DNA of 64,000 nucleotides from Thermodesulfobacteriota bacterium (GCA_964291405.2 OZ219926.1:3232001-3296000), one strand, 5' to 3'. Numbered from the stretch's first letter, positions 9,804 to 55,979 are shown. Numbers and translations: made by a program. Notes: a model not told the origin generated them from the sequence alone.

Positions 9804-10132
9804 GGTAGTGTCTCCGTTTGCAATTTGTTCTTCTCCGCGTTCGGTCCGCCCCTCCCTCCCGTCTCAGGGCCTTCGGTGACCGGGCAGTCCTGCTCCCGCC
9901 GGGCGCCCCTCGGCCTGGAGCCAAGCCGGAGCAGGACCCCCCCCTCATAATTTCCTCAGAAATTACTAGGGACAACCGGTTGGTAGCCGTGTTAGGAAGC
10001 GAACGGCCTACCGAATACGCGTCAGCGCGGTGTCCGGGAGCCGAGAGGAGAACACGATGCCTGAGAGGGAGCTGGGGAGAGGGCGGACTGCCCCGTTTTT
10101 CCTGGTCAGAAGTTGCAAAGTGAGACACTACC
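9804..10132. mobile_element. MITE / internally deleted IS, 329 bp
   Basis: TIR GGTAGTGTCTCCGTTTGCAATTT vs GGTAGTGTCTCACTTTGCAACTT (20/23); 8-bp TSD CTTTGTTG at 9796-9803 and 10133-10140; no transposase. Confidence 0.9.
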
Positions 10133-10213
10133 CTTTGTTGGACTGTGTAGGGGGCAACTTGCTATGCCTTTATTCTCCGACCCCTCCGTATAAAGCGTAA
10201 AATATGGTCCGGA

Positions 10214-10251
10214 TTGCTACTATTATACCCTCGATAATATAGCGGGTATCA
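10214..10251 (+). promoter_or_regulatory. Putative sigma70 promoter with inverted repeat, upstream of the PLD gene
   Basis: TTGCTA (10214) then TATAAT/TAATAT (10235-10242), bracketed by ATACCC...GGGTAT. Confidence 0.45.
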
Positions 10252-10259
10252 GCAGACAT

Positions 10260-11339
10260 ATGAGTGAAATATATCTTAGAAGCATCGACCGTAGATGGAA
10301 GAAAGAACTAGAGAAAATTAGTGGAAAGGTGACTATCCTTTCTCCTTATCTCACCTCAAGTACTGCCGAAGCGATCATTACCAAAGTGCCTTCAGCCAAT
10401 TGTGAAGTGTACACACTTTTCTCAGTTGAAAACTTTGCTAGTGGTGCATCTTCGATCAAAACCCTCCGTAACTTGTTTGATGCCGGATACGCTCTCTTTC
10501 ATCTCCCTAGGCTTCACGCCAAAGTTGTCCTTGTATCCGATAGGCTAGCCACAATTGGAAGCCAGAATCTCACAGCTAATGGAATTAGAAACCGTGAGGC
10601 AAGCCTCCTGATTAACTCTCAGGACGAAGTGAGGAAAATAGAAGAGGATCTCGAACCTTGGCTTGTCGAAAGACAAACAATTTCAGCGGAGATGGTTTCA
10701 GATGTCGAACGATTGTTGCCGCAGGTTCGTCGGATGTTTCTTTCCTCGCGGAGGGCTGCTAACGATCTCGAAAAGAAAATATGGTCGTTTGAGTTGACTC
10801 GTGAACGGCAGAAAGAGGAGGAACGGAAAAGATTAAACCGTAGAATTCTGATAAGAAACAGAAGAATTGCCAAGTCGCATACTACTGTGACTCCCCTTAT
10901 TAAAATAACAAATGTTCCCCGAGAGCTAGCTATCCGTTTCATAGAGGAATCTGCGTGGTGGCATCATCCATATGGTCTCAGGCGTGCACCGGGTCATTCT
11001 GACAGAATGGATGGCATTCACGGGGATTGGAAGGTCAAATTTGGAGCTAACACTTTCCTCGTAGGTCGGGCTATTAGTCGTTGTGCCTCTACCATTGACC
11101 GGTATCTGGCTGCCATTAAACAAGGGCATGATCAGAATCGAGACGAGTTAGTAGAGAAACTGAAGTTCAATGTCCGTGGAGCCGTCGCCAACTGGAACGG
11201 ATACGAATACCGATACTATGATGTTCAGGGAAATGACATGATGTTCGGAACCCAATCGATTGACGTTAACGATTTCGTCAATCTTGCACTCCGTATCTGG
11301 AATATCGACGAGCTTATCACAGAACTAGATGGGGAGTGA
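10260..11339 (+). CDS. Phospholipase D-like (HKD) domain protein, putative nuclease, with unknown C-terminal domain
   Basis: ILSPY, RLHAKVVLVSD..ATIGSQNLTANGI.NREA: single HxKxxxxxD...GSxN motif typical of PLD-family nucleases; AT-richer than flanks. Confidence 0.8.
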   Translation: MSEIYLRSIDRRWKKELEKISGKVTILSPYLTSSTAEAIITKVPSANCEVYTLFSVENFASGASSIKTLRNLFDAGYALFHLPRLHAKVVLVSDRLATIGSQNLTANGIRNREASLLINSQDEVRKIEEDLEPWLVERQTISAEMVSDVERLLPQVRRMFLSSRRAANDLEKKIWSFELTRERQKEEERKRLNRRILIRNRRIAKSHTTVTPLIKITNVPRELAIRFIEESAWWHHPYGLRRAPGHSDRMDGIHGDWKVKFGANTFLVGRAISRCASTIDRYLAAIKQGHDQNRDELVEKLKFNVRGAVANWNGYEYRYYDVQGNDMMFGTQSIDVNDFVNLALRIWNIDELITELDGE

Positions 11340-11444
11340 GGGGAAGCGTTGGCTACTCCCGACCGTATTCCTATACATCCACATAGTAGTCTGGTCACCC
11401 AACGGTCCCTCTACTCGAAGATTGATATAGATAGAGAACATCCC

Positions 11445-12701
11445 TCAAGTCAGCCTTCCTCGTTTGAAGTCTGTCACGATCTGATTGTATCTTTCTTGCC
11501 CAGGCTGGAAGAAATCAAAGAGCATGAAAACAGGGTCAAGAAGATTTTGCACGTGTTGAGAGAGCGACCCATCGAGAGCTGAGAGATCAGTAGTGATTGT
11601 TGATTCGATTTCTTTTTCACTTGTCGGGCTGGAAGGACGGAACGTCGGACGGTTACTTGTGGCAGATATATATCTACCAGCGAGCCCCACATGGCGAAGA
11701 ATAAAGGTTGCAGTCGTATTATTGGGGACGTTAAGCCCTTCGTAGAGTCTGGAGAGATACATAAGCATTTCTGCGGTTCTCACGATCCTCGTGTTGAAGA
11801 ACAATTGATCGGTTGCTCCTCGGGAATCCTCAAAGAGGGTTTGCAGCAAATAGAATGATCCGTCTCGACGGAGTGCCCAGAAGTCATAGGATTCCTCCTC
11901 CCGGATCACCGTATTAACAATGCCGCTACTCGTTGGTCGGGGCTTCAGCGATTCCGTATTCAAATCCATAATACCGATTGGCCACCCAAACGTATCGATC
12001 ATGGAGGAACGCGCTACTTGTAGTAATTCAGCCGGGGAGTAATTGATTCGCGGTTGGGATAGGGTAGCAAATGCTTCTACATAGGTAGAGAATCCTGACT
12101 GGGCGAATCCTTCTAGCGCTTCTACGCGCATCTGGTCACGCCAGGAGAAGTCTTCTTCTGTTGGCTGCCCGTTGTATTCAAGAGACGTGTCGCTGGAAAC
12201 AGAGCGGTCTCGATACTGAAGTATCTGTTGGAGAGCGGCTACTAGCTGAGACTCTAGCTGGCGTCGCTTGCCCGCTTTGTCTGGATCATCTTCCTGCACT
12301 GAGTATACGGTCACCCGTTTCGTGCGTAGGTCAAAAGGGAGGTGTTCTACAGGTGAGCGGGCAGAATTGAAAATCATTATTATATACGGCCATCCTAGCC
12401 GTTTCAGAGCGAAGCCCAACTCAAGTAAGACGTTGGGATTTGGCGTAGGCCGCTGACCATTATCGGGATTAATGATGGAGACATCACAAACAAAGACCTG
12501 ACAACTATCAATCTTTTCAAGTATCGTATCCGCAATATCGGGAGAACCAGGAACCCCTGTCGTATCCCGGTCAACGACGGGCTCCACTGCTATAGCTGGA
12601 TCATTACGAATCGATTGAGCAGCTCTTTCAAGGGCCGTTTGAATAAAGCTTCGATTAGTAGAATTGGGCAGATCAGATTGCCAAGAGTAAAAGATTTTCA
12701 C
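11445..12701 (-). CDS. TIR-like / nucleotide-processing domain protein with C-terminal domain of unknown function
   Basis: IFYSWQSD, DRDTTGVPGSPDIADTILEKID, PNPNVLLELGFA, LPFDLR; GTG start after GGAG. Confidence 0.75.
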   Translation of the reverse strand: MKIFYSWQSDLPNSTNRSFIQTALERAAQSIRNDPAIAVEPVVDRDTTGVPGSPDIADTILEKIDSCQVFVCDVSIINPDNGQRPTPNPNVLLELGFALKRLGWPYIIMIFNSARSPVEHLPFDLRTKRVTVYSVQEDDPDKAGKRRQLESQLVAALQQILQYRDRSVSSDTSLEYNGQPTEEDFSWRDQMRVEALEGFAQSGFSTYVEAFATLSQPRINYSPAELLQVARSSMIDTFGWPIGIMDLNTESLKPRPTSSGIVNTVIREEESYDFWALRRDGSFYLLQTLFEDSRGATDQLFFNTRIVRTAEMLMYLSRLYEGLNVPNNTTATFILRHVGLAGRYISATSNRPTFRPSSPTSEKEIESTITTDLSALDGSLSQHVQNLLDPVFMLFDFFQPGQERYNQIVTDFKRGRLT

Positions 12702-13005
12702 TGCTGTCTCCGTATGGCATCCTAGTTTATCGGTGCCACCCATAGGTTTTCTTCAGTCGAGTATTGTACTCGTCCATCCATACTCTACGTCTTCACTATA
12801 GAGGGCCAGTAATTGGTCGCAAACCCACTCTCAAGATAACAGTTGAGAGGAGCATTGCACGAGCAGTGGAAAACAGACCTATGAGACAATAGGACTGAAC
12901 GAACCTTCATTCGCCAATAGATGGTAACAGGCTGAAGAAAAAAGGGAAATTGGCTTTGAATAATTCCTCCACTTCTGCTAGGCCGTCTGTATTAGGAGGG
13001 GTAAC

Positions 13006-24451: not shown

Positions 24452-25468
24452 ATGTACACAGGTCCTCTCTTCTCTTTTCAACGTTTCTGTTCATGGCTGC
24501 TCCTTGGTGCGCTCTTCGTTGGGGGTCTGGTTGGGTGTAGCTCCGGAACAACGCTGACTGACGTATGGCTGACGGAACTCTCGCGTCGTGTCTCGCGCCC
24601 GCCAAAAGTCCACCCCGTTGGCGTTGGATATATTCCTCGATTGACACGGCGGCAGCCCCCGCTGCTTCCACCGCTGTATGTGCTTGTCCTACGGCCGCTT
24701 GATCGTCGTCCGTCTCTGCGTATCCACGAGACCCGGCAGAAAATCATTTCACTGCCCGATGACCCCAGCGCTCTCATTGGCTTCTCCGGCCTGAATTTTG
24801 AGGAAGGACAGGTGACCATCGCCCCAGCCGGAATCGCCTCCGATATCAGCACATTGCGCCACATGGACGCGGGGATGCCGCATCTGCCGGATATCCCCAA
24901 GACGTTCTTTACCCTCGCCCGGCTCCCCGAGACCGTGCAATACGCCCTGACCCTGCACTTTCGCGAGGCGGGTATTGAAACGGAAATGCTGCCGTTTCCG
25001 TTTCCGGAGCCGCTGTCAGCAGATAATCAGCGGGCGACCTATGCCCTGGGCTGTACGATAGACGAGTTTTCGCTGTTCAGCCTGCGCCGCTATCAACAGG
25101 TGCGGGTCGGCATGCGTCGGCTAGAGTTGCCGGTACGCGGACCCACACGTGCGGGGGTATCGCTCAAACTCTCACTATATCAACTGCCGTCCGGGCGGGT
25201 TGTGTGGCAAGAGCGGGTCTGGGACGTTATCCACGATCCGCCGCGAGAGGATACGCAGCACCGCTATCGCACGGCTGACGATACTCTCACCCTGGCGCTC
25301 AGCCGCGCGGTTGGGGGTATTCTGTCGATCCCGAACTTTCAGGCCGCCCTTCGTTTTCCTCGTCATGACGAGGCTCTCGCGCAGAAACAGCGCAGATTAC
25401 GGTTCAGCCGCCCGCAGCCGGGCGATCTGCTGACGCACCTCGGCGACAAAAGGCGCTCGGGGATCTAG
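24452..25468 (+). CDS. Hypothetical lipoprotein
   Basis: Hydrophobic N-terminus ending in lipobox LVGC; 338-aa ORF; 3' end overlaps the convergent TPR gene. Confidence 0.65.
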   Translation: MYTGPLFSFQRFCSWLLLGALFVGGLVGCSSGTTLTDVWLTELSRRVSRPPKVHPVGVGYIPRLTRRQPPLLPPLYVLVLRPLDRRPSLRIHETRQKIISLPDDPSALIGFSGLNFEEGQVTIAPAGIASDISTLRHMDAGMPHLPDIPKTFFTLARLPETVQYALTLHFREAGIETEMLPFPFPEPLSADNQRATYALGCTIDEFSLFSLRRYQQVRVGMRRLELPVRGPTRAGVSLKLSLYQLPSGRVVWQERVWDVIHDPPREDTQHRYRTADDTLTLALSRAVGGILSIPNFQAALRFPRHDEALAQKQRRLRFSRPQPGDLLTHLGDKRRSGI

Positions 25469-27540
25469 TTGAAGAGCCTGCTCATAGACCGCCACCGCTT
25501 CGTTCTTCTGGCCGGATTGCCCCAGGGCTCGTCCGAGGCTCACATAGGCATAGGCGTAATCGGGCTGAAGATGGATCGTTTGTCGCCAGGCCTGCACGGC
25601 TCCCGCGAGATCGCCCTGTGCCGCGAGTACGTGACCAATGCGATGGTGCACATGGGCTGAGGTCGGGACCAACTGCACGGCTTTGCGATAGGCTGCCAGC
25701 GCGTCTTGGGTATTCCCTGCGGCCTCACATGCCCGGGCAAGGTGGATATGGATGGTCGCCTCATCCGGATTAAGATGCGTGGCCTCGCGCAAGGCTGTAA
25801 TTGCCTGCGGCAGTTCTCCACGTTCCTGGAGTGCGACCCCTATCCGATAATGCGCCTCGGCATGGCTGGGGGCCTGGTCTATGGCTTTACGCCACTGGCG
25901 AATCGCCCCATCTATATTCCCCTGATTATAGAGGGTATAGCCCTGCCTGAGATGCTGAGCGGCTGTGGCCGGCACGGGCGGCGGTTGCGAAGTATCTGGA
26001 GATGGGATGCCAGGGGCAGGCGCTGGCAACTTAGAGGCCGCTGGAGGAGGGTCCTTGAGCGGAATAGCCGCCCTCAGCCCCTGAGGGGCCGATGGTAAGG
26101 GAGTGGACTGCGCTGGACCTTCTCTGTCAGGCGTCTCGCGTGATGTGGGAGCAGGAGGCGCTACCTGCCGGAGTGGGAGCGGAGGAGCCTTTTTTACCAC
26201 TTTCTTCGCTAAGACCGTCGGAACAGAAGACACGGGCGGCGGTTGCGGGGTGTCCTGAGGTGAGATAGTGGGTGCCGGCGCTAGCGACTCAGGGACTGAT
26301 GGGGGAGTAGCTTTGAGAGGGGTAGCCTCTCTCCGTTCCTTGGTGGTCGATGGTAAGGGGGTGGCCTGTGCCGGAGCTTCTCTGGCAGGCGTCTCAGGTG
26401 GTGTAGGGGCAGACGGCGTTGCTTGACGAAGTGGGAGTGGGGATGGGGGGGGGAGTGTTTTTTTGTTACGAGGACCGTTGGGGCCGGTACGATGGGTGGC
26501 GGCTGCGGGGTGTCCGGAGATGGGCTGGCGGGAACAGGCATCGGCAGCGGGGGAACGGAGGTCAGCGGGGCCTTGAGAGGGGTGGCCTCTCTCCGCTCCT
26601 TGGTAGCCGCTGGTAAGGGGGTGACCTGTACCGGAACTGTTCTGGCAGGCGTCACACGTGATGTGGAGGCAGGCAGCGTTGCTTGAGGGAGTGGGGGGCG
26701 GGACGGGGGCCTTTTTGTTCCTTTTTTTGCGAGGACCGTTGGGGCCGGCACAATGGGCGGCGGTTGAGGAGCGTCTGGAGATAAGCTGACGGGAGCAGGC
26801 GGCGGCAGGGGGGCGGAGGTCGGCGGGGCCTTGAGCGGGATGGCCTCTCTCCGTTCCTTGGCAGCCGATGGTAAGGGGACGGCCTGCGCTGGAACTTCTT
26901 TGTCAGGCGTCACACGTGATGTGGAGGCAGGCGGCGTTGCTCGGCGGAGTAGAGGTGAGGAGGCCCTTTTTGTCACTTTTTTCACCAAGACTGTTGGAGC
27001 GGGAGACGCGGGTGCTTGGGCTGGTCCAGGAGGAACGGACTGAGAACTCGCCTCTGGGACACGTGCAAAGAGCACCTGGGTGTTGCCCTGTTCAGCGTTG
27101 GCGTTGGAATTGTCCGCTTCCTCTCGCTCGTCCAGGATGGCGGTCACCACATGGGCCTGTTGTTCGACTGAAAAAGACGGGAGCTGCTCCGCTTTGAGGT
27201 CAAGCACGAAACGGGTGTGGTGGGGATGGGAGCCAACCCGGACCCGCGTAATCAGCGCATCGGAGGCGGGATGCGTGGCCGAGGCCGAGCGCTCGACTTC
27301 TCCTATGACATCAATGACCAAGCGGGCCGGCGAGTGTAAGGAAAAGGCGTAGACAGAATCCGGTGGCTGGGAGAAGTGGAGGCTGAGGGTCCGTTGGTTT
27401 TTCTCCCGAGCGAGTTGTATCTCCTGCACATACAATCCCGAGGGCCGGGCAAAAGATTGGGAGATACTCTGCCCAGGGGCTATCAGATCCATTCCGGTCC
27501 ACATAGCAATAAGTAAGAAGGAAACGGCACTCTTCTTCAT
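25397..27540 (-). pseudogene. AMIN domain + Pro-rich repeats + TPR protein, split by a frameshift near 26445-26464
   Basis: ORF 26281-27540 (signal peptide, AMIN: PARLVIDV...RVRVGSHP..TRFVLDL) and ORF 25397-26233 (TPR); the TPR frame is open back to the A7/C9 tracts and continues the repeat sequence. Confidence 0.8.
25975..27010 (-). repeat. Four degenerate ~260-bp Pro-rich coding repeats
   Basis: PTVLxKK...TPLP...ERREATPLKA...PQPPP units; anchors at 26213, 26473, 26734, 26989. Confidence 0.85.
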
Positions 27541-27556
27541 CGCTCAAGGCTCTCAG

Positions 27557-28765
27557 CTATGACTCGCGTAAACGCGCGACCCGTTTGCGTATCTCTGCGC
27601 ACAGGGCCTCAGCATTGCTCTTTTTTCGACTCTCCTCAAACGCTTGTGTAAAACGCACGCAAACTGGTACGGCGTTCTTGTATGTAGCCAAAGCGTCTTT
27701 CTCTCTGCCCATTTTCTCGAGCGCTTCACCGTAGTTGGCATAGGCATAGGCGTAATGCGGGGCCAACTGTATGGTCTGGTACCATGCGTTTGCCGCGCCC
27801 TGCCAATCCTCTCTCTCGGCGAGTATATATCCCAGCCGATTGTGGACATACGGTGCGGAGGGAACTAATTGCAAGGCTTTTTGATAGGTGTCAAACGCCT
27901 CCTGCTCCTTCCCCAGCGCTTCGAACGCGCGGGCAAGATGGACGTGCGCCGTGGCATTATCCGGCTCAAGCCGGAGCGCTTGCTGAAAGGCGGTCGCTGC
28001 CTGGGTGTGATCTTTTTGGTCTCGGAAGGCAAGCCCTAACAGATGATGCGCCTGGGCGGTCTGCGGAGCGAGGCGCAGGGTCTCTTTCCACTCGGCGACT
28101 GCCGCGTCAATTTTGCCGGCATCATAGAGAATTTGCCCCTGTTCAAGATGATAACGGGCCTGTTGCGATAATGGCCTTGGAGAAGCGGACTGCTCCGGTT
28201 CAATTTGGGGGGAAGGGGGCGGCGGGGTTGGGACCGCAGCCACGATCGGAGCCGGGCTCTTGAGTGCACGCTGGGAAGCCGGTGTTGTCTGAGACCGCGA
28301 AAAAAGCACCTGGGTCCGTACCGATGAAGAGTCACCGCCTTGTTTCCCCAGTTTGGCAAGAATCTCATTGGCTCGGTGTTCAACCGAATGCACCGGCATT
28401 GTCTGGCCGTTGAGGTCCAAGACAAGGCGCAGGTGTTGCGGATGCGAGCCGGTGCGGACGTGGGTGAGGAGCGCATCATCGGCTTGATAGGTACGGGACG
28501 GTACGTTTTGTACCGGACCGTGCACATCAATGACGATGCGTGAAGGCGATGACAGGGAGAACGACCGTATGGAGTCAGGCGGATGAGAAAACTGAAACAG
28601 GACTGTCCGTGTCTCCCCCTCAGTCGTCAGGCGTATTTCTTGTAAGCGGAGAGCGGCGGACTGGGCAAAGGCAAGAGGCGTCCCCAAGACGAGCCAGAGC
28701 AGAACCAGACTAATCTGTGCGACGCTGAAGTCGGTGCGTGTTCTCTGCATGACAACGCTTGACAT
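27557..28765 (-). CDS. AMIN domain + TPR repeat protein
   Basis: Signal peptide (PLAFA), SPSRIVIDV...VRTGSHPQHLRLVLDL, Pro linker, multiple TPRs; start approximate. Confidence 0.85.
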   Translation of the reverse strand: MSSVVMQRTRTDFSVAQISLVLLWLVLGTPLAFAQSAALRLQEIRLTTEGETRTVLFQFSHPPDSIRSFSLSSPSRIVIDVHGPVQNVPSRTYQADDALLTHVRTGSHPQHLRLVLDLNGQTMPVHSVEHRANEILAKLGKQGGDSSSVRTQVLFSRSQTTPASQRALKSPAPIVAAVPTPPPPSPQIEPEQSASPRPLSQQARYHLEQGQILYDAGKIDAAVAEWKETLRLAPQTAQAHHLLGLAFRDQKDHTQAATAFQQALRLEPDNATAHVHLARAFEALGKEQEAFDTYQKALQLVPSAPYVHNRLGYILAEREDWQGAANAWYQTIQLAPHYAYAYANYGEALEKMGREKDALATYKNAVPVCVRFTQAFEESRKKSNAEALCAEIRKRVARLRES

Positions 28766-28791
28766 GGCGATGCCTACCCGGCTGGAGCCGC

Positions 28792-29505
28792 TCAGGCGTC
28801 CGAGTCCGGGGGGTCGGTGCGGGGACACAGCCGCTGCGAAACGGTGGTCAATTCCTGGCGCACCTCGTCGAGTTGGGCTTCGACGTGTTGCATCGCCCGC
28901 ATGATGGCCCCACTGTCCGGGCGCGTTTCGGGCGTCAGCCCGCCGGACTCGAGCAGGCGGCTGAAGACCCGCACGATTTCCTCGGGCGTAATCTCCTCTC
29001 CGGGCTGATACCAGCGGTATAACCAGTTGCACATGCCGCTAAAGGCCTGCATCAGCAGCCGGGGATTTTCGTCGATGATCTCGCCCCGCTCGATGCCACT
29101 GCGAATTTCGTCCTCGATCAACAGATCGATCTCCTGCTGCATGGCTTCAACGACCTGGACCGTTTCCGGCGGCAGGTTGGCTTCCTGGCGAAACAGCAGA
29201 CAGAGCGACTGATCCGTCGTGAGCGAGGCGATCTGGTGCGCCATCACCTGTCGAATCTTCTCCGGACGAGAGAGCGGTCGGACCAGGATTTCCTCCAGGG
29301 TGGCCCGATAGCTCTTCAGCGAACGGGTAAAGATGGCGGTCAGCAGCGCGGCCTTGCTCTCAAAATAGGTGTAGAAGGTCACCCTGGAGATACCGACATG
29401 CGCGACGATGTCGTCCAGCTTGGTTTCATTATAGCCGCGCTGGGTAAAGCATTCCGTGGCCGTGCGCAGGAGTTCTTCTTCTACGAGCTGGCGCTTTGTT
29501 GTCAT
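28792..29505 (-). CDS. TetR/AcrR family transcriptional regulator (KstR2-like C-terminus)
   Basis: FTQRGYNETKLDDIV..VGISRVTFYTYFESK HTH; GMCNWLYRWYQPG. Confidence 0.92.
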   Translation of the reverse strand: MTTKRQLVEEELLRTATECFTQRGYNETKLDDIVAHVGISRVTFYTYFESKAALLTAIFTRSLKSYRATLEEILVRPLSRPEKIRQVMAHQIASLTTDQSLCLLFRQEANLPPETVQVVEAMQQEIDLLIEDEIRSGIERGEIIDENPRLLMQAFSGMCNWLYRWYQPGEEITPEEIVRVFSRLLESGGLTPETRPDSGAIMRAMQHVEAQLDEVRQELTTVSQRLCPRTDPPDSDA

Positions 29506-29539
29506 CCCGGCCTCTGGGCTAAAGATAAAAGATTTTGGC

Positions 29540-29581
29540 TTGACTGATAAAGAGGATATGTAATAATACTTACCCCAAGTA
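29540..29581 (+). promoter_or_regulatory. Putative promoter and TetR operator
   Basis: TTGACT-N16-AATAAT; palindrome TACTT-N5-AAGTA at 29567-29581 in the divergent intergenic region. Confidence 0.4.
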
Positions 29582-29642
29582 AAGAAATCTATACAAGAGT
29601 AAAGTTCTCTTTGCTCGGAAACAAGAGAGGTCCAGGCTTGGG

Positions 29643-29694
29643 ACCATTCATGAAGCTGGAACCATTCATGAAGAAGGAGGGACCATTCATGAAG
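29643..29694 (+). repeat. Triple direct repeat ACCATTCATGAAG
   Basis: Copies at 29643, 29661, 29682; each holds an in-frame ATG. Confidence 0.85.
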
Positions 29695-31002
29695 AGGCGT
29701 GCGTTGGCGAAATCGATCTGTTTTGTATTCCTGGCAGCCGCGCTGATGCTCGGCGGTCTATGGATATCGCCCCTGACGGCATTTGCCAACCAGGACCAGA
29801 GCTATGACACCCTGCGGCACTGGATCGAGCACGCCCGTCCGGAGACCGAGCTAACCCCCGGACAGCATCTGACTCTCCAAGATCGCGCCATACTGGAGCC
29901 GCTCATTCCCAAGACGGCCTGGGAGTACTACTTCTATGACGGCATGGATATGGAGATTACGGAGACCGGGACCTACCCACCCCCGGTAGATTGGGGCAAG
30001 AATGTCCCGTCCGGCTACCACCTGGATGAGCAGGGGGTGTTGGTCGGCTTCAAGGGTGGGGGTTTTCCTTTCCCGAATATTGACGAAGACGACCCCCAAG
30101 CGGCGCAGCAAGTCATCTGGAATCTGTTGTGGCGACCTGGGGCCGAAGACTATATCATGCCGATGGTGGCGTGGTCGCGGAGTCCGAATGGCCAGTTGGA
30201 CCGCCAGTTTGAGTTTACCGCCATCGCTTCCCGTTATGCGCAGGGGGACCACTGCTTGGTGCCGGGTTATGAAGAAGTGAAAACCAAGCAGTTGATGGAG
30301 TTCCGCTCGCCCCGGGACATGGCCGGGGCGAAAATGCTGACCAAGATCTATGTGGATCACTACAAAGAGGACAATGGGTGGATGTATATGCCTGCGCAGC
30401 GCAAGCCACGGCGAACGCTGGCCTCCGAGCGTACGAGTGAGGTCATGGGCATGGATTTCACTATGGAAGACTTCATAGGCTTTGGCGGCAAGGTGTATGA
30501 GCACAATTGGAGCTATCTGGGGAAGAGGAAGGTGCTGGCCACGATCAATGTTGAGACCAACCCAGAAGCCGGTGGTCCGCACCTCTGGGTACCGAAGAAC
30601 GCGCGCTGGGAGGTACGCGAGGCGCACGTGCTGCTGATTGATCCCAAAGCCGACAACCATCCGTATAGCCACAAGATCGTCTTTGTCGACACCGAGACGT
30701 TCTGGACGCTGTGGATGTTCGCTTTTGATCGCCAGGACGATCACCTCTTACGTATGAACCAGCATTTTCTCAAGTATTCCGAGAGCTTTGCCCACGAGAC
30801 CGCCACCCAATCACCTTATATGAAGCTGGATTACGCGAATAATGTCGGGGAGCGGATATTCTACCATCTGGGAGAGACCGATATTAACGCCAAAAAACCG
30901 CACGCGACGTATATGCACTGTTATGTCATGACGAGACATTTTTCCTCGGGACGGGCCAAGCAATTCTATTCCGTCCGCAATATGGTCAGCGGGCGGCGTT
31001 AG
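29689..31002 (+). CDS. DUF1329 domain protein (periplasmic), paralogue 1
   Basis: Signal peptide, GGGFPFP, QVIWN, WMYMPAQRKPRR, HPYSHKIVFVD; SD AAGGAGG. Confidence 0.82.
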   Translation: MKRRALAKSICFVFLAAALMLGGLWISPLTAFANQDQSYDTLRHWIEHARPETELTPGQHLTLQDRAILEPLIPKTAWEYYFYDGMDMEITETGTYPPPVDWGKNVPSGYHLDEQGVLVGFKGGGFPFPNIDEDDPQAAQQVIWNLLWRPGAEDYIMPMVAWSRSPNGQLDRQFEFTAIASRYAQGDHCLVPGYEEVKTKQLMEFRSPRDMAGAKMLTKIYVDHYKEDNGWMYMPAQRKPRRTLASERTSEVMGMDFTMEDFIGFGGKVYEHNWSYLGKRKVLATINVETNPEAGGPHLWVPKNARWEVREAHVLLIDPKADNHPYSHKIVFVDTETFWTLWMFAFDRQDDHLLRMNQHFLKYSESFAHETATQSPYMKLDYANNVGERIFYHLGETDINAKKPHATYMHCYVMTRHFSSGRAKQFYSVRNMVSGRR

Positions 31003-31019
31003 AGAAGGATCATATCAAT

Positions 31020-32327
31020 ATGCGCTTCCGTATCTGCTTCACCTCGTATGTCCTCTTCCTCGGTCTGGCTGTGATCCTTAGTGGCCTCTGGCTGTCGTCC
31101 ACAGCGCTGGCCAACCAGGATCAGAGCTATGACACCCTGCGGCACTGGATCGAGCACGCCCGTCCGGAGACCGAACTGACCCCCGGACAGCATCTCACCC
31201 TCAAAGACCGCGCCATCCTTGAATCGTTTATCCCTCAGCCGGCTTGGGAATATTACTTCTACGACGGCATGGATATGGAGATTACGGAAACCGGAGCCTA
31301 CCCGCCCCCGGCAGACTGGGGCCAGAATGTCCCGTCCGGGTACCAACTGGATGAGCAGGGGGTGCTGATTGGATTTAAGGGTGGGGGCTTTCCTTTCCCG
31401 GACATCGACGAAGACGACCCGCAGGCCGCGCAAAAAATTATCTGGAATATGTTGTGGCGGCCTGGGGCCGAAGACTATGTCATGCCCATGGTGGCGTGGT
31501 CGCGAAGTCCGAACGGACAGTTGGACCGCCAGTTTGAGTTTACTGCGGTCGCTTCCCGTTACGCTCAGGGGGACCACTGTCTGGTGCCTGGCTATGAAGA
31601 AGTAAAAACCAAGCAACTGATGGAATTCCGCTCGCCGCGTGACTTGGCCGGGGCGAAAATGCTGACCAAAACCTACGTGGATCACTACAAAGAAGACAAT
31701 GGCTGGATGTATATGCCTGCGCAGCGCAAGCCGCGCCGGACGCTGGCCTCCGAGCGTACCAGTGAGGTCATGGGCATGGATTACACCATGGAAGACGCTA
31801 TGGGCTTTGGCGGCAAGGTGTATGAGCACACCTGGAGCTATCTGGGCAAACGGCGAGTGCTGGCCACGATGAATGTCGAGACCAACCCGGAAGCCGGCGG
31901 TCCGCATCTATGGGTACCGAAGAACGCGCGCTGGGAGGTACGCGAGGCGCATGTGCTGCTGATCGATCCCAAATCCGATAACCACCCCTATAGCCATAAA
32001 ATTGTGTTTATCGACACCGAGACGTTCTGGACGCTGTGGATGTTCGGCTTCGACCGCCAGGACGATCTCCTTTTGCGTATGAACCAGCACTTTCTCAAGT
32101 ATTCCGAGAGCTTTGCCCACGATACGGTTGACCAAGCACCCTATATGAAGCTGGATTTCTCAAATAATGTCGGGCAGCGATTGTTCTACCATCTGGGAGA
32201 GACCGATATTAACGCCAAAAAACCACACGCGACTTTCTCGCACTGTTATGTAATGACAAGACATTTCTCCTCGGGGCGGGCCAAGCAAGTCTATTCCGTC
32301 CGCAATATGGTCAGTGGGCGGCGCTAG
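31020..32327 (+). CDS. DUF1329 domain protein, paralogue 2
   Basis: Highly similar tandem paralogue. Confidence 0.82.
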   Translation: MRFRICFTSYVLFLGLAVILSGLWLSSTALANQDQSYDTLRHWIEHARPETELTPGQHLTLKDRAILESFIPQPAWEYYFYDGMDMEITETGAYPPPADWGQNVPSGYQLDEQGVLIGFKGGGFPFPDIDEDDPQAAQKIIWNMLWRPGAEDYVMPMVAWSRSPNGQLDRQFEFTAVASRYAQGDHCLVPGYEEVKTKQLMEFRSPRDLAGAKMLTKTYVDHYKEDNGWMYMPAQRKPRRTLASERTSEVMGMDYTMEDAMGFGGKVYEHTWSYLGKRRVLATMNVETNPEAGGPHLWVPKNARWEVREAHVLLIDPKSDNHPYSHKIVFIDTETFWTLWMFGFDRQDDLLLRMNQHFLKYSESFAHDTVDQAPYMKLDFSNNVGQRLFYHLGETDINAKKPHATFSHCYVMTRHFSSGRAKQVYSVRNMVSGRR

Positions 32328-32347
32328 ACTGCTCAGAATAGTGTCAT

Positions 32348-33949
32348 ATGCGCCTTCGTATCTGTTTCGCCTCGTGTGCTCTCTTCCTCGGCTTGGCTGT
32401 GATGCCGGCACCGTCGTGGGGCATTATTGCCGTCACCGATGACGTTGAACTCGAAGGGTTTGTCAAAACCCAAAACATCATCCGCACCCCGATGTTTCGG
32501 GATGCGGAATTCATCATGCAGCGGAATACGGCGCAACTGGAGGGCAAGTACTACTTTTTGCGTGAGAGCCAAGCCTTTGGTCGTTTCGCCACTGGCCCGT
32601 TGGAAGAGGCCACGCTGACCCTTATTGGCCGCGGCGTGTACGACACGGTCTATGATATTCGGCATACATATAACGAGGCCTTCGGCAAGGACCAGCGCCT
32701 CAACCGCCAGGCTGAGTACAAGCTGCGCGAAGCCTTTGTCGATATGGTGCTGCCCCCGTTTACACTCCGGCTGGGCCGCCAGCAAGTCGTGTGGGGAGAG
32801 ACCGATAATTTTCGGGCGCTGGATGTCATCAACCCTCTCGATCTGCGCTGGCACGCCAACTGGGAACCCTGGGAGGATATCCGTATTCCGCTATGGATGG
32901 CGCGGGCGATTTACGACATTGGCAAATTCGGTCCGCTTGAAGAATCCTTTATCGAGGCGGTCTGGATTCCATGGGATTTTCAGCCCAATAAGGTGGCCGC
33001 CGACCCTCGTCGTCCCTGGGGATTTATCGGCGACGGCCTGGCTGAGGTGGCCAACTCTGTCATGGATGGAGATGAACTCCTTAACCTCATCACTACGGTG
33101 AGGGATGATAAGCCGAGTAAAAAGTTCAAGAACGGCCAGGCCGGAGTACGCTTCAAGGCCATCTGGGGTGGGATCGATTTCAGCCTCAACTATTTCTATG
33201 GTTTTTCCGCGGACGCCGGCTTCAAGGTTCGCTCGGACTTAGCCCGCCTTGAGGGCAGGACCCTGCACGCCGTACTCGACCGTGTACATCCGCGTTCTCA
33301 CGTTGTCGGCATTGCGGCCAATTATTCGGAGGAAAAATATACGCAGTCCGTTTTCCGGGTGGAAACGACTTTTACGACGGGTGTGCCGGTCGCACTTGAC
33401 CCGGCTGCATTAGGGACCCGGCTCGACCCGGATGGGAATCTCTTTGACACGGCTGACCGTTCGGTCGTCATGCTGGCCATTGACCGCCCGACCTGGATTC
33501 GTCCGCTGAATGATATACGGACGTTTTTCCTCTCCGCGCAGTTCTTCTGGCGGCGCTATCTGGACTACAGTCGTTTCTACCGCGGCATTCCGTCCGTCCG
33601 GCGTGCTCACATGGATGGTGAGGTCGTCCCAGGTCGATTCATCAGCGAGAATAGAGACAAAATCGATCAGAACGAGTTTGTCATTACCTTTTCCGCTTCC
33701 ACCAGCTATGGGCCAGGCGGGCTCTGGCAGCCCTTGTTTGTGTTTGCGCTCGATCCGCTCTCCACAGGAGCGTATAACAAATTCGCCATGGACTACCTGT
33801 GGTCAAACTATTTTATCTTGCGGTTTGAGCAGAATTTCTTCTGGCGGGTCCGCTCGCACGACCCAGGGCCCTGGGCCATTGGAGACCTGTACGGTCGTCC
33901 CCGCGACAGCCGCCACGAGAGTGTTGTCAGCGCGATCTTTCAATTTTAG
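32348..33949 (+). CDS. DUF1302 family outer-membrane protein
   Basis: LREAFVD, RLGRQQVVWGETD.FRALDVINPLD, EDIRIPLW; C-terminal Phe. Confidence 0.85.
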   Translation: MRLRICFASCALFLGLAVMPAPSWGIIAVTDDVELEGFVKTQNIIRTPMFRDAEFIMQRNTAQLEGKYYFLRESQAFGRFATGPLEEATLTLIGRGVYDTVYDIRHTYNEAFGKDQRLNRQAEYKLREAFVDMVLPPFTLRLGRQQVVWGETDNFRALDVINPLDLRWHANWEPWEDIRIPLWMARAIYDIGKFGPLEESFIEAVWIPWDFQPNKVAADPRRPWGFIGDGLAEVANSVMDGDELLNLITTVRDDKPSKKFKNGQAGVRFKAIWGGIDFSLNYFYGFSADAGFKVRSDLARLEGRTLHAVLDRVHPRSHVVGIAANYSEEKYTQSVFRVETTFTTGVPVALDPAALGTRLDPDGNLFDTADRSVVMLAIDRPTWIRPLNDIRTFFLSAQFFWRRYLDYSRFYRGIPSVRRAHMDGEVVPGRFISENRDKIDQNEFVITFSASTSYGPGGLWQPLFVFALDPLSTGAYNKFAMDYLWSNYFILRFEQNFFWRVRSHDPGPWAIGDLYGRPRDSRHESVVSAIFQF

Positions 33950-33964
33950 TCCTGCGACAACGAC

Positions 33965-35149
33965 CTATGATTCCGAGGCGCGGAGGCGGGTAATCCGTCT
34001 CTGGACCTCGGACGCAAAAGCCGCTTGCGGGTCCAACTCGATCGCGCGTTCATAGGCGGCAAGCGCTTGTGTTGGTTGCCCCAAGCTTTCCAGTGCCTCA
34101 CCCAGATTGGCATGGGTATAGGCATAGTCCGGGTCTAACGCGATCGCCTGTTGCCACTCGTCCGCTGCGGCTTGGTGCTTGCCCTGCGCGGCAAAAATAT
34201 GACCCAAGCGGTCATGAATATACGACGAGGTCGGAACGAGTTGGAGGGCTTTCCGATACGCGGCCACGGCCTCTTGGGTATCACCGTTGGCTTCGAGCGT
34301 GCGGGCAAGATGAACATGGGCCATTGCATTGTGCGGGTCGAGCCGCAGCGACTCCTGTAACATGTCAATTGCCTCGTCACGCGCGCCATGATCCCCAAGC
34401 GCCAGCCCGAGCAGGTGGTGGGCCTTGGCATTGGTCGGTGCGAGACGAACGGTTTCGCGCCACTCGGCAATTGCCTTATTCAAATCGCCCGTATCGTAAA
34501 ACTCCTGTCCCTGCCGCAGATGGAGAAGGGCCTGGGACGATAAAGATCGCGGCGGCAACGGGTCGGGTGGCGGAGCGGGTGGTTCGGTCGCAGGCTGCGG
34601 GGCTGGGGTCGGCAGCGGTGGGGGTACGGCCGGGGCGGGCGTCGCTGGACGGACAGGGCGAGCGCGGACAATCTCGCGCTTGGGCGGCGCTTCTACCGTC
34701 TTGTTGGTATGCGAAAAAAGGATCTGAGAGTAGGCTTCTCCTTCAGTCCCGTTTTCGCGCACAAAGACAATGACCACCCGGTCGGTGCGTTGTTCTACGC
34801 TAAAGGGAGGAATCTTGGCTTGTTTGAGGTCCAGGACAAGCCGGAGATGGCCCGGGTGCGTCCCGAGGCGGACCTGGGCAAGGAGTTCGTCATCCGCCTG
34901 GTACACGGCTGTTGGTGTGCCCCGGCGCGGGCCCTGTACGTCGATGACCAAACGGGAGGGAGACGAGAGGGCAAACGAGTTGACGGCGTCCGGTAGACGC
35001 GAAAACTGAAAGAGGACAGAGCGCCGATTTCCTTGTACCGAAAGTTGGACTTTCTGCAGACTCAGCAGATCGGACTGGGCAAAGGCTGGGGTCCACCCTA
35101 TGCCGAGCCAGACATATATCGCACTGACAAAGATCCACGCCTTGCGCAC
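33965..35149 (-). CDS. AMIN domain + TPR repeat protein
   Basis: Signal peptide, SPSRLVIDV...VRLGTHPGHLRLVLDL, Pro linker, TPRs. Confidence 0.85.
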   Translation of the reverse strand: MRKAWIFVSAIYVWLGIGWTPAFAQSDLLSLQKVQLSVQGNRRSVLFQFSRLPDAVNSFALSSPSRLVIDVQGPRRGTPTAVYQADDELLAQVRLGTHPGHLRLVLDLKQAKIPPFSVEQRTDRVVIVFVRENGTEGEAYSQILFSHTNKTVEAPPKREIVRARPVRPATPAPAVPPPLPTPAPQPATEPPAPPPDPLPPRSLSSQALLHLRQGQEFYDTGDLNKAIAEWRETVRLAPTNAKAHHLLGLALGDHGARDEAIDMLQESLRLDPHNAMAHVHLARTLEANGDTQEAVAAYRKALQLVPTSSYIHDRLGHIFAAQGKHQAAADEWQQAIALDPDYAYTHANLGEALESLGQPTQALAAYERAIELDPQAAFASEVQRRITRLRASES

Positions 35150-35171
35150 TGTTGTTCTCTCCTGCCAGATT

Positions 35172-36371
35172 TTAATCTACTACAGCCGGCTCTTTTTCAA
35201 CAACTCGCCCGGTCTGGAGGAGCATGTCAGCGTCATGGGTGAGGTAATAGCAGGCGACTGTACACACGATACTCAGCAGGCCCGCGCTGTAGAACATGCT
35301 GCTCAAATTATAATAATCGACCACGATACCAAAAACCGGCGGAGCAATGGTCATCCCAAAGCTATGGACCGTCAAGAGCGTGCTCATCACCGTTCCCATA
35401 CTCGAACCCGGCGTGTGTTCCATGGCCAGCGCCATATGGGCAGGATAGGCCAGCCCGAACCCCGCGCCGACCAGGGCATTCAGGCCGAGTAAATGCCAGA
35501 ACGTTGAGGCCAGGGGAAAACCGGCCAAGGAAACGGCACTGATCAGGCTACCGATACTGATGAGGACCGCTTTATTCATGCGATCGGACAGCCGTCCGCA
35601 CGGGGACTGAAGGACCGTGCTGATCAAGACGTTCAGGGAAATCAGCGCTCCCACCTGTGAGGTAGTCAGCGGTAGCAGGGAGGCCGACAGCAGGGGCACA
35701 AAGACCCAAATGAGGGTGCTGGACAAGGCATACACCACCCGAAAGAGAGCGACGCCAAGAATGGGCCGCGAGGATAAAACCGTGTGCCAGGAGGCGATCT
35801 CCTTTTTTTCTGTGACGTGCTGTTTTTGGACTTCGGGTAAAAAGAAGAGCAGCAAGAGTAAAGACAACAGGCTCAGGAGACCCAGGAGAATAAAGCTGGC
35901 CTGCATATTGAACATGTCTTTAATCACCCCGCCTAAGATCGGTCCCCCGGCCACGCCGCCCAGAAAAGCCGTATTGACATAGCCGGCATACGCCCCCTCT
36001 TTTCCTTTGGGGGTCAGGTCGCCCACGTACGCCATGGAAACCGGCTGGACCATGGCGGTGGCGACCCCTTGGAGCGCCATGATTACGATGAGCGTCGACA
36101 GGCTGTTGGCGAGCAGATAGGCAACCGAGCTGAGGGCGTAGCCGAACAGCCCCCAGAGTAAAAACGCCTTGCGGCCATGTCGGTCCGAGGCCCGACCGAT
36201 GAGGGGTAGCAGAAAAGTGCGAGACGCCGAGTGGGCTCCAAACAGAATGCCGACGGCCACGCCGCTCGCTCCGAATTCCTGGGCGTAGATGGGGATAAAG
36301 GGAATCACCACCCCGTTGCCGAGCATGGTGGCAAACAATGCCACTGACAAAACAAAAAGCGGCCCGCTCAT
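35172..36371 (-). CDS. MFS transporter (DHA1-like)
   Basis: About 12 hydrophobic segments, GRASDRHGRK motif A. Confidence 0.92.
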   Translation of the reverse strand: MSGPLFVLSVALFATMLGNGVVIPFIPIYAQEFGASGVAVGILFGAHSASRTFLLPLIGRASDRHGRKAFLLWGLFGYALSSVAYLLANSLSTLIVIMALQGVATAMVQPVSMAYVGDLTPKGKEGAYAGYVNTAFLGGVAGGPILGGVIKDMFNMQASFILLGLLSLLSLLLLLFFLPEVQKQHVTEKKEIASWHTVLSSRPILGVALFRVVYALSSTLIWVFVPLLSASLLPLTTSQVGALISLNVLISTVLQSPCGRLSDRMNKAVLISIGSLISAVSLAGFPLASTFWHLLGLNALVGAGFGLAYPAHMALAMEHTPGSSMGTVMSTLLTVHSFGMTIAPPVFGIVVDYYNLSSMFYSAGLLSIVCTVACYYLTHDADMLLQTGRVVEKEPAVVD

Positions 36372-36482
36372 GCTGCCCTCTGAGCTATCAGCCGCTTGTG
36401 GGAAGAGATCGGTCGCTCCCCAAGAAGCTCAACGCTCCCGACCGGAAAATCGGATTTCTGATTAGTGCGGACCAAGTGTCGC

Positions 36483-37949
36483 TTACTCTGCCCGCACCGA
36501 GGGCCACTGCTCTGCCCAGGGCTTGGCCTGCTCAAGCTGCGAGGCGAGGCGAAACAGCATGTCCTCTCGGCCATAGGCGGCCACGAGTTGGACGCCGATC
36601 GGCAACCCTGCGCTATTCCAGTGAAGCGGCAGCGAGATGGCTGGCTGGCCGGTGACATTAAACGGCACGGTAAACGGCATGAGGGTAGCCGAACGCCGCG
36701 CGCCCCCAAGCGGATTCTCCGCTGTGGAGACAAACTCTCCCAACCGGGGTGGGGGCTCGGCAATGGTTGGGGTGACGAGGATGTCAAAACCGGCGGAGCC
36801 GTCTTCGGGCTGCCACCAGTGGGCGAGCCGACGCGTGTCAGCCTGGAGCCACTCAATGGCTTCGATATAGCGTGTCGCGGTACGGGCTCGACCGATTTCA
36901 GCCATGGCCCAAGTGTGAATCTCCACGTCATCCTGGGTGACGGCTTTGCCCGTCTGTTTACCTAAGGTGTCGATATGAGAAGCGATGGCGCTCGTCAAAA
37001 TCGCCCACACGTGCCGCCGGCGTTCTTGTTCGTCGTTGAGCGCACTGGGATAGGAGTCCTCAACCGTATGACCGAGTGAACTCAGAAGCTGGGCCGTTGT
37101 CTGGACGGCTGCAACGCAGTCCGGGTGCAGAGGGGTCGCCTGCCCAGGGAAATCCGCCAGGACGCCAACCCGCAATACTCCCGGATCAGCGCCGACCTCT
37201 TCAAGAAAGGGGCGCGTCGGCGGAGTGGCAAAATACGGATCGCCCGGCATGGGGCCGGCAATGGCATCAAGAATCGCGGCCGTGTCGCGTACACTCCGCG
37301 TCACAACGTGTTCGTTGACCAGACCCTGCCAGACCTCGCCGTATTCCGGTCCGAGGGAGACGCGCGAACGGGTGGATTTGAGCCCAACCAGACCACACTC
37401 GCTGGCCGGCACCCGAGTCGAACCCCCCCCGTCGTTGGCATGGGCCGCCGGGACCATGCCCGAGGCCACGGCCGCGCCGGCGCCACCGCTGGAGCCGCCG
37501 GTGGAGTGCTCTGTGTTCCAGGGATTCCGACTCGGGCCGTAGGCGTCCGGTTCGGTCGTTGGCATGGTCGCAAACTCGGGCGTATTGGTCTTGCCGAGGA
37601 AGATAAGGCCCGCGGCTTTAAGTTTGGCGGCCATATAAGTGTCTTCTTTTGCGGTCCAGCCAAGCTCTTTCAGAAAGCGGCTGCCTTGATGATAGGGGTC
37701 GCCAGCGGAATGACAGCCAAAGTCTTTGAGGAGAAAGGGGACGCCGGTGAATGGCCCGTCGGGTAACTGCGGCGATTTTGCCTGGTCGCGCGCTTTCTCA
37801 AAAAGAGGCGTGATTACGGCGTTGAGCTGTGGGTTGACGTGCTCAATGCGGGCAATGGCGGCGTCTACCAGTTCGAGTGGCGTTGCTTGTCCTGTACGGA
37901 CGAGGTCGGCCTGCGCCAATGCGTCGAGGTGGGCGAGTTGGTCAGCCAT
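36483..37949 (-). CDS. Amidase (amidase-signature family)
   Basis: GVPFLLKD, GKTNTPEF, GGSSGG, DGGGSTRVPA. Confidence 0.93.
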   Translation of the reverse strand: MADQLAHLDALAQADLVRTGQATPLELVDAAIARIEHVNPQLNAVITPLFEKARDQAKSPQLPDGPFTGVPFLLKDFGCHSAGDPYHQGSRFLKELGWTAKEDTYMAAKLKAAGLIFLGKTNTPEFATMPTTEPDAYGPSRNPWNTEHSTGGSSGGAGAAVASGMVPAAHANDGGGSTRVPASECGLVGLKSTRSRVSLGPEYGEVWQGLVNEHVVTRSVRDTAAILDAIAGPMPGDPYFATPPTRPFLEEVGADPGVLRVGVLADFPGQATPLHPDCVAAVQTTAQLLSSLGHTVEDSYPSALNDEQERRRHVWAILTSAIASHIDTLGKQTGKAVTQDDVEIHTWAMAEIGRARTATRYIEAIEWLQADTRRLAHWWQPEDGSAGFDILVTPTIAEPPPRLGEFVSTAENPLGGARRSATLMPFTVPFNVTGQPAISLPLHWNSAGLPIGVQLVAAYGREDMLFRLASQLEQAKPWAEQWPSVRAE

Positions 37950-54889: not shown

Positions 54890-54987
54890 GGGGTATCCTC
54901 CTTCACTCTCTTTGTTCTTTATCCTAGCGTTGGGGCTGCTTTGCTGAAAGCCCTCCTGGTAAGCAAGGTACCAAGGAGCGTTCAAAC

Positions 54988-55016
54988 TTGACTTCAAGAC
55001 GTAGCTCCACTATGTT
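54988..55016 (+). promoter_or_regulatory. Putative promoter for ihfA
   Basis: TTGACT-N17-TATGTT. Confidence 0.5.
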
Positions 55017-55183
55017 CGCAGCGTTGTTATTTATAATATTGTCGTGGTATTACACAATCTTGCGCTTCTTATCCGCTACCTGGGGAGCAGCGCCTGCGTA
55101 CGGTGAAATGGGCTCCTGCCCGTGTGATGTGAGTTGAAAGCTTCCTTGCCTCCTACTGCTGGAGGATGATGGTGAGGCCCTGT

Positions 55184-55471
55184 ATGACAAAAGCAGACAT
55201 TGTTGAGCATATTTACGAGAAGGTCGGCTTTTCGAAAAAAGAAGCGACCGATGTGGTTGAGTCGATCTTCGAAATCATTAAAGGCCATCTCGAAAAAGGA
55301 GAAAAGGTCAAAATCTCGAGCTTTGGGAATTTCGTCATTAACGAGAAACATCCGCGTAAAGGACGGAATCCACAGACCGGGGAAGAAATTATTATATCTG
55401 GCCGTCGTGTGTTGTCGTTTAAACCGAGTCCTGTCTTGAAAAAGGCCATTAACCCACTCCTCCAAGACTGA
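55184..55471 (+). CDS. ihfA: Integration host factor subunit alpha
   Basis: [37 protein letters not shown]; upstream of MerR-like gene. Confidence 0.93.
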
Positions 55472-55478
55472 GCTTGTC

Positions 55479-55874: not shown

Positions 55875-55949
55875 GTACAAGATGTAGTGGACTGAAGTTG
55901 ACTTTCTCTTCTCCTGAGACAAATATATTGATTAATAAAAAATCCTTTA

Positions 55950-55979
55950 TTGACAATACTTTATATAGGATGTTAGAAT
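55950..55979 (+). promoter_or_regulatory. Putative sigma70 promoter
   Basis: TTGACA-N18-TAGAAT with AT-rich upstream segment. Confidence 0.55.

Follow-up and report, generated by a model that had tools for sequence, protein, structure and literature searches.

A DUF1329-DUF1302 locus flanked by AMIN-TPR genes in Candidatus Binatia: a possible wall-tethering accessory of a known outer-membrane system

Systems that pair a DUF1302 protein with a DUF1329 protein are described, in the portions of the literature available to us, as widespread in degraders of hydrophobic compounds, with mutant phenotypes in several species and an obscure mechanism. In Castellaniella, an ameB insertion mutant had a growth defect on monoterpenes, and deletion of ameABCD gave lower monoterpene tolerance and more dye accumulation, which are export-type phenotypes (PMC6394551). 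DUF1302 and DUF1329 genes are cofit with those of a COG1033 RND protein and a COG4447 BNR protein in Shewanella, Kangiella and Pseudomonas, and in Pseudomonas the halves of the cluster are unlinked yet cofit (bioRxiv 10.1101/072470; bioRxiv 10.1101/2020.07.04.188060). Phenotypes on fatty esters and a predicted DUF1302-DUF1329 complex have also been published. For the AMIN domain, de Souza et al. (2008) listed AMIN+TPR proteins as class (ix), in alpha-proteobacteria and some firmicutes, recorded AMIN fused to the PilQ secretin, TonB-dependent receptors and OEP, and predicted an outer-membrane transport role for AMIN+TPR proteins (PMC2572700). Here we describe a locus at positions 24452-37949 of a 64,000-nucleotide (nt) stretch of a Candidatus Binatia genome (OZ219926.1; the whole stretch is called the window below), in which two DUF1329 genes and a DUF1302 gene are flanked by AMIN-TPR genes.

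We read this locus, at a probability of about 0.45, as a lineage-specific, dispensable wall-tethering accessory of a known and poorly understood outer-membrane system, an accessory that would bind the wall through its AMIN domains. The reading starts from observed domains, synteny, a gene fusion and co-distribution. A sequence-only reading of the window had proposed a new trans-envelope system. That claim went too far: no inner-membrane part was shown to belong to the locus, and the AMIN+TPR architecture had been listed in 2008. The 60 open reading frames (ORFs) of the window were scanned with Pfam. The ORF map and the scan bore out the proposed gene order, and all of its domain calls held, every family match lying above its gathering score (cut-offs for PF06980, PF07044 and AMIN PF11741 are 23.2, 23.1 and 20.5 bits). 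The locus has the following features (lengths in amino acids, aa):

24452-25468, plus strand: lipoprotein-like gene, 338 aa, with an N-terminal lipobox-like LVGC found by eye; no Pfam or NCBIfam family
25397-27540, minus strand: AMIN-TPR1, two ORFs in the assembly, 26281-27540 (AMIN part) and 25397-26233 (TPR part)
27557-28765, minus strand: AMIN-TPR2, 402 aa from its likely start; Pfam AMIN and TPR
28792-29505, minus strand: tetR; TetR_N 55 bits, TetR_C_24 80.6 bits
29540-29582, plus strand: promoter-like site with inverted repeat, from reading of the sequence and an alignment of nine genus members
29689-31002, plus strand: DUF1329a, LolA-like periplasmic protein; PF07044 116.1 bits, PF17131 69 bits
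31020-32327, plus strand: DUF1329b; PF07044/LolA_like, 120.6 bits
32348-33949, plus strand: DUF1302, predicted outer-membrane protein (AmeA-type), C-terminus ...IFQF; PF06980 89.3 bits
33965-35149, minus strand: AMIN-TPR3, 394 aa; Pfam AMIN 28.7 bits and TPR
35172-36371, minus strand: MFS_1 transporter (Pfam)
36483-37949, minus strand: amidase-signature enzyme; PF01425 316 bits

In the mechanism that we propose, an AmeA/AmeB-type core, made of the two LolA-like DUF1329 proteins and the predicted DUF1302 barrel, would serve as the outer-membrane route of a hydrophobic or amphiphilic compound, in one direction or the other. The conserved genes next door, for an amidase and a drug/H+-antiporter-like MFS protein, would be compatible with amide uptake as well as with efflux. 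The core would be transcribed from a promoter that is probably repressed by the divergent TetR. In the Binatia genera g1 (that of the window) and g19 and in family f2, such modules may have gained peptidoglycan anchoring in two ways. One would be a direct AMIN::DUF1302 fusion, encoded in an MMPL/LolA-like locus elsewhere in the genome. The other, at this locus, would use separate secreted adaptors that consist of a signal peptide, AMIN, a Pro-rich linker and a five-repeat TPR domain. AMIN would grip the wall, the TPR end would grip one of three partners (the predicted barrel, a DUF1329 protein or the lipoprotein of LptE/PelC-like fold), and the complex would thus be positioned or stabilised relative to the wall. 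The fusion, together with free AMIN-TPR adaptors beside a paralogous pair, offers a testable architecture, a barrel held to peptidoglycan, with its candidate contacts named.

DUF1329a, DUF1329b and DUF1302 lie adjacent on one strand, with gaps of 17 and 20 nt, as they do in 10 of 10 g1 stretches examined. The two DUF1329 genes are tandem paralogues (88% protein identity), and relatives carry one or two copies. On the other side, tetR, AMIN-TPR2 and AMIN-TPR1 form a string in this order, with gaps of 26 and 16 nt. AMIN-TPR3 shares the strand of the MFS gene, follows it after 22 nt and converges on DUF1302 across a 15-nt gap. This convergent pair, like the lipoprotein gene and AMIN-TPR1, which overlap by 72 nt, leaves no room for terminators. 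The whole locus is kept in ten annotated g1 stretches, down to about 60% protein identity.

The sequence-only reading depended on AMIN-TPR genes being linked to DUF1302/DUF1329 in other genomes. The link was found in genus g1, in G025 and in G134, and not in most g19 genomes. An AMIN-TPR3 orthologue is present in 24 other g1 genomes; in 21 it lies at most 50 nt from the DUF1302 orthologue, in two at most 3.2 kb away, and in G024 the two are on separate contigs. In G025, of family f2 (L054), the order on one strand is DUF1329, an AMIN-TPR gene of the AMIN-TPR2 type, DUF1302 and an SBF transporter gene. In G134, of genus g19 (L125), an AMIN-TPR gene and the DUF1302 orthologue are convergent and 75 nt apart.

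DUF1302 is also a new fusion partner for AMIN. The genome of the window (G000) encodes a 659-aa AMIN::DUF1302 protein at G000:C3:3030611-3032590, about 226 kb from this locus, in which a Pro-rich linker joins AMIN to DUF1302. It belongs to a string (L015, G000:C3:3026536-3032590) of genes for a TetR, an 847-aa MMPL pump, a 268-aa LolA-like protein and the fusion. This four-gene layout recurs in g1 and in G025 (L055), and also in g19, where the fusion is about 800 aa long and has two AMIN domains. Identity between the N-terminal AMIN of the fusion and the AMIN of AMIN-TPR3 is 48%. PF06980 and PF11741 are combined in at least 50 protein clusters, some of which have AMIN twice. Unfused proteins closest to the fusion are 65-70% identical, and two distant fused forms are 31% identical. 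Among the papers listed in literature searches on DUF1302/DUF1329 and on the AMIN domain, none links AMIN with DUF1302. A search for longer forms of the window's DUF1302 gave only two weak matches, each about 1900 aa long and listed without a TPR family; on this weak evidence, a TPR::DUF1302 fusion did not appear in the orthogroup.

The adaptors and the fusion are distributed together. Across the order (56 genomes), AMIN-TPR and the fusion occur together in G000, in 23 of the 27 other g1 genomes, in all eight g19 genomes and in G025. Neither was found in G012 and G016, which are complete, or in the 19 genomes of other genera (19/19). AMIN-TPR was found without the fusion in G009 and G024 (65% and 89% complete).

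The absence of RND and BNR partners, on which the sequence-only reading had remarked, holds for the window, where the Pfam scan found no MMPL/RND or BNR protein among the 60 ORFs, so that the four-gene cluster is incomplete here. It does not hold for the genome, in which such proteins are present, the nearest MMPL about 226 kb away. G000 has eight DUF1302 loci: two with MMPL and BNR (complete clusters at C3:528-539 kb and C3:4208-4216 kb), one with MMPL, the LolA-like gene and the fusion, and five that are pump-less. Because five of the eight, this one included, have no adjacent RND gene, the missing RND and BNR genes are ordinary here; the split clusters of Pseudomonas are a known parallel. 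The genome has about 20 DUF1329 matches and nine DUF1302 matches. On G000:C3, at least six DUF1329 genes have no DUF1302 gene beside them, and genes for luciferase-like monooxygenases often lie a few kb away.

All three AMIN-TPR paralogues of the genome sit at this single locus. Their AMIN domains score 28.0 (AMIN-TPR1), 33.1 (AMIN-TPR2) and 28.7 bits (AMIN-TPR3), against 43.3 bits for the AMIN of the fusion. The order AMIN then TPR in one polypeptide is seen directly in AMIN-TPR2 and AMIN-TPR3, and in AMIN-TPR1 only across a frameshift. By eye, the AMIN proteins have hydrophobic N-termini that end in AFAQS-type sites; the AMIN-TPR proteins are probably secreted and clip onto the cell wall. 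For AMIN-TPR2, a 491-aa ORF (27557-29032) overlaps tetR, and the likely start at 28765 gives 402 aa; in alignments, a C-terminal Cys...Cys insertion is common to this protein and to the products of the G025 and G134 genes. The paralogues differ in linker length as had been proposed, with about 60-75 aa in two of them and about 350 aa in AMIN-TPR1.

Of the three paralogues that were called, all keep their domains, and the first is split in the assembly by a 1-base frameshift. The layout of AMIN-TPR1 is a putative signal peptide, AMIN, four Pro-rich repeats and a five-repeat TPR domain. The repeat unit is about 87 aa (about 260 nt) with 26% proline, and its four copies appear as a period-260 tandem repeat at 26313-26941. 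The AMIN frame exits in copy three, and the TPR frame is open upstream across the whole of that copy. Compared with the closest relative, G004, in which AMIN-TPR1 is one ORF of 715 aa, one base is missing at 26454-26464, where seven A are left in a run on the gene strand. Orthologues are intact at 461-800 aa, which fits one to five repeat copies. The public sequencing run that covered this region best (X1) gave a 1975-nt contig over 25635-27608 at depth 68, with eight other letters and one gap; an extra base behind 26457 restores the frame. Run X3 has an extra base behind 26459. Since contigs of both runs carry the extra base, the break is either a strain-specific change or a homopolymer assembly error. 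The variation in repeat number argues for a flexible tether rather than a fixed-length ruler.

At class level, 49 of 401 genomes have a match to the AMIN-TPR proteins at E<=1e-30. Full-length relatives, those matched over the AMIN part as well, are confined to g1 (25 of the 27 other genomes), g19 (8/8) and the single f2 genome; elsewhere the TPR part alone matches, one 544-aa frame of g20 being left out of this count. In a collection of 5.8 billion proteins the family ends after about 90 clusters, none less than 36% identical to AMIN-TPR3, and is followed by generic TPR proteins. A PilQ-type role was rejected: relatives have a 727-aa AMIN protein that is PilQ, encoded in a pilMNOPQ string unconnected with this locus. 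NCBIfam gave nothing above a cut-off for the TPR domain, and the PgaA, BcsC, PilW and Tgl models scored far below theirs (35-46 bits for PgaA and BcsC, whose cut-offs are 367 and 858).

In g18, g22 and g25 (L127, L128, L129, L136) there are secreted homologues of the TPR part alone, 231-256 aa long and with 41-47% identity to the TPR domain. Their genes come after an AMP-binding ligase gene, with a gene of the enoyl-CoA-hydratase family (561-577 aa) nearby; L136 additionally has a regulator with helix-turn-helix and shikimate-kinase-like parts. We take these surroundings to be box-type benzoyl-CoA clusters.

The lipoprotein matches no family in the Pfam and NCBIfam scans, and its own family is small, with 31 representatives at E<=0.001 among 1.84 billion proteins. 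Its AlphaFold2 model, from an 18-row alignment, has a predicted local distance difference test (pLDDT) of 78.1 and a predicted template-modelling score (pTM) of 0.71. In VIA-align the model matched the DUF330 protein 2iqi at Z 13.1 (root-mean-square deviation, rmsd, 3.9; 165 aligned), PelC 5t11 at Z 12.2 (rmsd 2.4; 123 aligned) and the PelBC entry 9h80 at Z 10.9. The fold, over residues of about 54-306, is common to DUF330/PqiC, HpaA, FlgT, PelC, CsgG, the TolB N-domain and LptE (Z 13.1-7.7). Because no sequence family matches, the protein is predicted as a member of the LptE/PelC/PqiC/CsgG-like fold class only. Most proteins of this class are lipoproteins of the outer membrane, where they build rings or plug barrels. 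A look-up in the Atlas gave unnamed Binatota/Nitrospirota clusters and one NLBH lead, present in 19% of members, which we set aside.

The lipoprotein gene is present in 24 of the 27 other g1 genomes, always adjoining AMIN-TPR1; the G022 copy consists of fragments with stop codons. G019 and G022 have neither an intact lipoprotein gene nor AMIN-TPR1 and keep AMIN-TPR2 and AMIN-TPR3. This hints that the lipoprotein pairs with AMIN-TPR1, a hint that comes from at most two events.

Control by TetR, as first proposed, fits the TetR_N and TetR_C_24 domains, a conserved promoter-like site and a candidate operator; the control itself we infer from these sequences. In the 183-nt spacer between tetR and DUF1329a, TTGACT, 17 nt and ATAATA face the DUF1329 genes and are directly followed by TTAC-N5-GTAA. 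The TTGAC and TTAC...GTAA columns are invariant in 9/9 aligned g1 intergenic regions, three of which have a TetR only about 60% identical. An automatic inverted-repeat finder returned nothing at its thresholds in this spacer; the short repeat came from the alignment. G013 has no tetR. The divergent TetR would probably repress the DUF1329 promoter. Downstream, the likely start of DUF1329a is ATG 29689, rather than TTG 29611, which opens the ORF. An 18-21-nt unit with a ribosome-binding-site-like GGAG and an in-frame ATG occurs in about three copies before the gene (29640-29695) and gives three nested starts (MKL.., MKK.., MKR..). This leader repeat is common to G004 and absent in the seven other genus members aligned.

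Our model of DUF1302 is all-beta, at a confidence too low to search for similar folds (pLDDT 54.5, pTM 0.49). For a member from Pseudomonas, a published model shows an 18-strand barrel, with AlgE among its nearest folds at a template-modelling (TM) score of 0.55 (PMC13499233). A complex prediction of DUF1302 (26-533) with the TPR domain of AMIN-TPR2 (190-402) returned no answer (score 0.00, the mark being 0.32) and is evidence neither way. In G012 the DUF1302 orthologue (L137, G012:C1:1283997-1285577) lies in a 753-aa open frame, against about 535 aa elsewhere, and the extension enters the DUF1329 region.

Several observations weigh against a tether dedicated to this DUF1302 system. G012 and G016, two 100% complete g1 genomes, keep the order of amidase and MFS genes facing DUF1302 and DUF1329, and AMIN-TPR, tetR and lipoprotein genes were not found at their loci. 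The DUF1302 orthologue is far wider in distribution than AMIN-TPR, occurring in 50 of the 55 genomes of the family and in nine out of ten genera; orthologues of 62-69% identity are present in g18, g20, g21, g22, g23, g25 and g26. In these genera the only homologues of AMIN-TPR seen were TPR-only, and four that were checked lay on contigs other than that of DUF1302. In all, seven or eight sister genera have the DUF1329-DUF1302 pair and lack AMIN-TPR. In five of the eight g19 genomes AMIN-TPR is away from the DUF1302 orthologue, four times by 1.4-2.7 Mb on one contig and in G066 on different contigs; two further genomes were too fragmented. AMIN-TPR genes stand at one of the eight DUF1302 loci of G000. 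Searching the PDB with the TPR sequence gave only consensus TPR, OGT and similar entries, with no clue to a partner. Because the genomes used for synteny and co-distribution are kin of one lineage, the counts amount to a handful of events, not 56 observations, and very few of these are independent; G012/G016 and G019/G022 together yield three events at most. The AMIN-TPR adaptors are accessory, not obligatory.

Alternatively, AMIN-TPR proteins may be general wall-anchored periplasmic scaffolds with clients elsewhere, such as the MMPL/LolA-like/AMIN::DUF1302 system or the maintenance of wall and outer membrane, and their position here would be inherited gene order. AMIN-TPR genes do occur in unrelated contexts. 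The short g19 form adjoins an amidase gene (product 28-31% identical to that of the window) and KAS II/III genes, the long g19 form lies about 5 kb from the MFS orthologue, and a 608-aa double-AMIN TPR gene of G025 (L053:9340-11166) has as neighbours MacB-like ABC transporter genes (ABC_tran, FtsX, MacB_PCD) and a DUF1326 gene. Also, AMIN-TPR presence follows the unlinked fusion locus more closely than the DUF1302 orthologue, and the TPR-only homologues of other genera come after the ligase gene. Against such a general role, three distinct arrangements place AMIN-TPR less than 100 nt from DUF1302/DUF1329 (divergent and convergent in g1, in-operon in G025, convergent in G134), and the genome has gathered all three paralogues at this one locus. 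We regard general scaffolds as the strongest competitor, and still as somewhat unlikely.

The tethering reading can also be put in a bolder form, which we consider doubtful. AMIN anchoring would then define the design of one class of DUF1302 machines in Binatia, and adaptors whose Pro-rich linkers are free to evolve (one to five 87-aa repeats), together with the lipoprotein, would bridge the wall to the outer membrane and replace the organising role of RND and BNR proteins here. Such a bridge, if real, would be a first handle on the assembly of DUF1302/DUF1329 complexes.

AMIN-TPR3 might instead serve the amidase-MFS operon that it ends, as a periplasmic or wall-side part of amide uptake or efflux, DUF1302 being merely convergent. 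The top NCBIfam matches of the MFS gene are drug/H+ antiporter types, all under curated cut-offs, and none of the NCBIfam models reaches its cut-off for the amidase. The 22-nt distance to the MFS gene on the same strand speaks for an operon of this kind, as do the amidase-family and MFS genes that recur near g19 AMIN-TPR genes. The low identity of the g19 amidases (28-31%) speaks against it, G012 and G016 retain amidase and MFS without AMIN-TPR3, and AMIN-TPR1 and AMIN-TPR2 behind tetR would be left unexplained. We think it improbable. Lower still we place an AlgK/AlgE- or PelB/PelC-like port in which TPR proteins, barrel and lipoprotein would export a polymer or lipid rather than take a compound up: the PelC and PelBC matches of the lipoprotein model, the resemblance of the Pseudomonas DUF1302 model to AlgE and the export-type phenotypes of the Castellaniella ameABCD deletion point that way, but no synthase, glycosyltransferase or polymer-modifying gene of synthase-dependent export is among the 60 window ORFs, many unrelated outer-membrane lipoproteins share the lipoprotein fold with Z within 1 of PelC's, and the window's DUF1302 model is too poor for comparison.

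The surroundings of the locus in the window are catabolic, with luciferase-like monooxygenases, amidohydrolases, a CoA-transferase and a thiolase-like protein, and translation genes further on. G+C dips to 0.47 (10001-12000) and 0.49 (54001-56000), against about 0.57 elsewhere in the window; the first dip has a PLD-like gene (10260-11339) and a 432-aa ORF without a family (11445-12743). Contigs of metatranscriptome run X18 cover 26001-26360, 29661-30795, 32091-32231 and 36514-36710, where DNA carry-over is possible and the level of expression is not readable. The host lineage, Candidatus Binatia, is of a kind found in sponges, and the runs that contain the stretch are mostly labelled as sponge metagenomes. 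For the Binatota, methylotrophy and alkane degradation are mentioned in the text available to us (PMC8262859).

Like the AlgK/AlgE, PelB/PelC, BcsC and PgaA ports, the locus brings together a periplasmic TPR, a predicted barrel and a PelC-like fold, a likeness of layout only; unlike in those ports, its TPR would be anchored by AMIN, not by lipid or by fusion to the barrel. Like the classes of de Souza et al., the window's proteins have an N-terminal AMIN followed by TPR, and the fusion follows the same syntax of AMIN plus an outer-membrane transport module; the DUF1302/DUF1329 context and DUF1302 as the fused module are not in the portion of that survey we have. Like AmeABCD of Castellaniella defragrans and the cofit clusters, as far as the sources at hand describe them, the locus sets DUF1302 beside the LolA-superfamily DUF1329 in a catabolic neighbourhood. 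Unlike them, it has no RND or BNR gene, carries two DUF1329 copies and a TetR instead of a LuxR regulator, and has its DUF1302/DUF1329 pair flanked by AMIN-TPR adaptors and the gene of an LptE/PelC-like lipoprotein.

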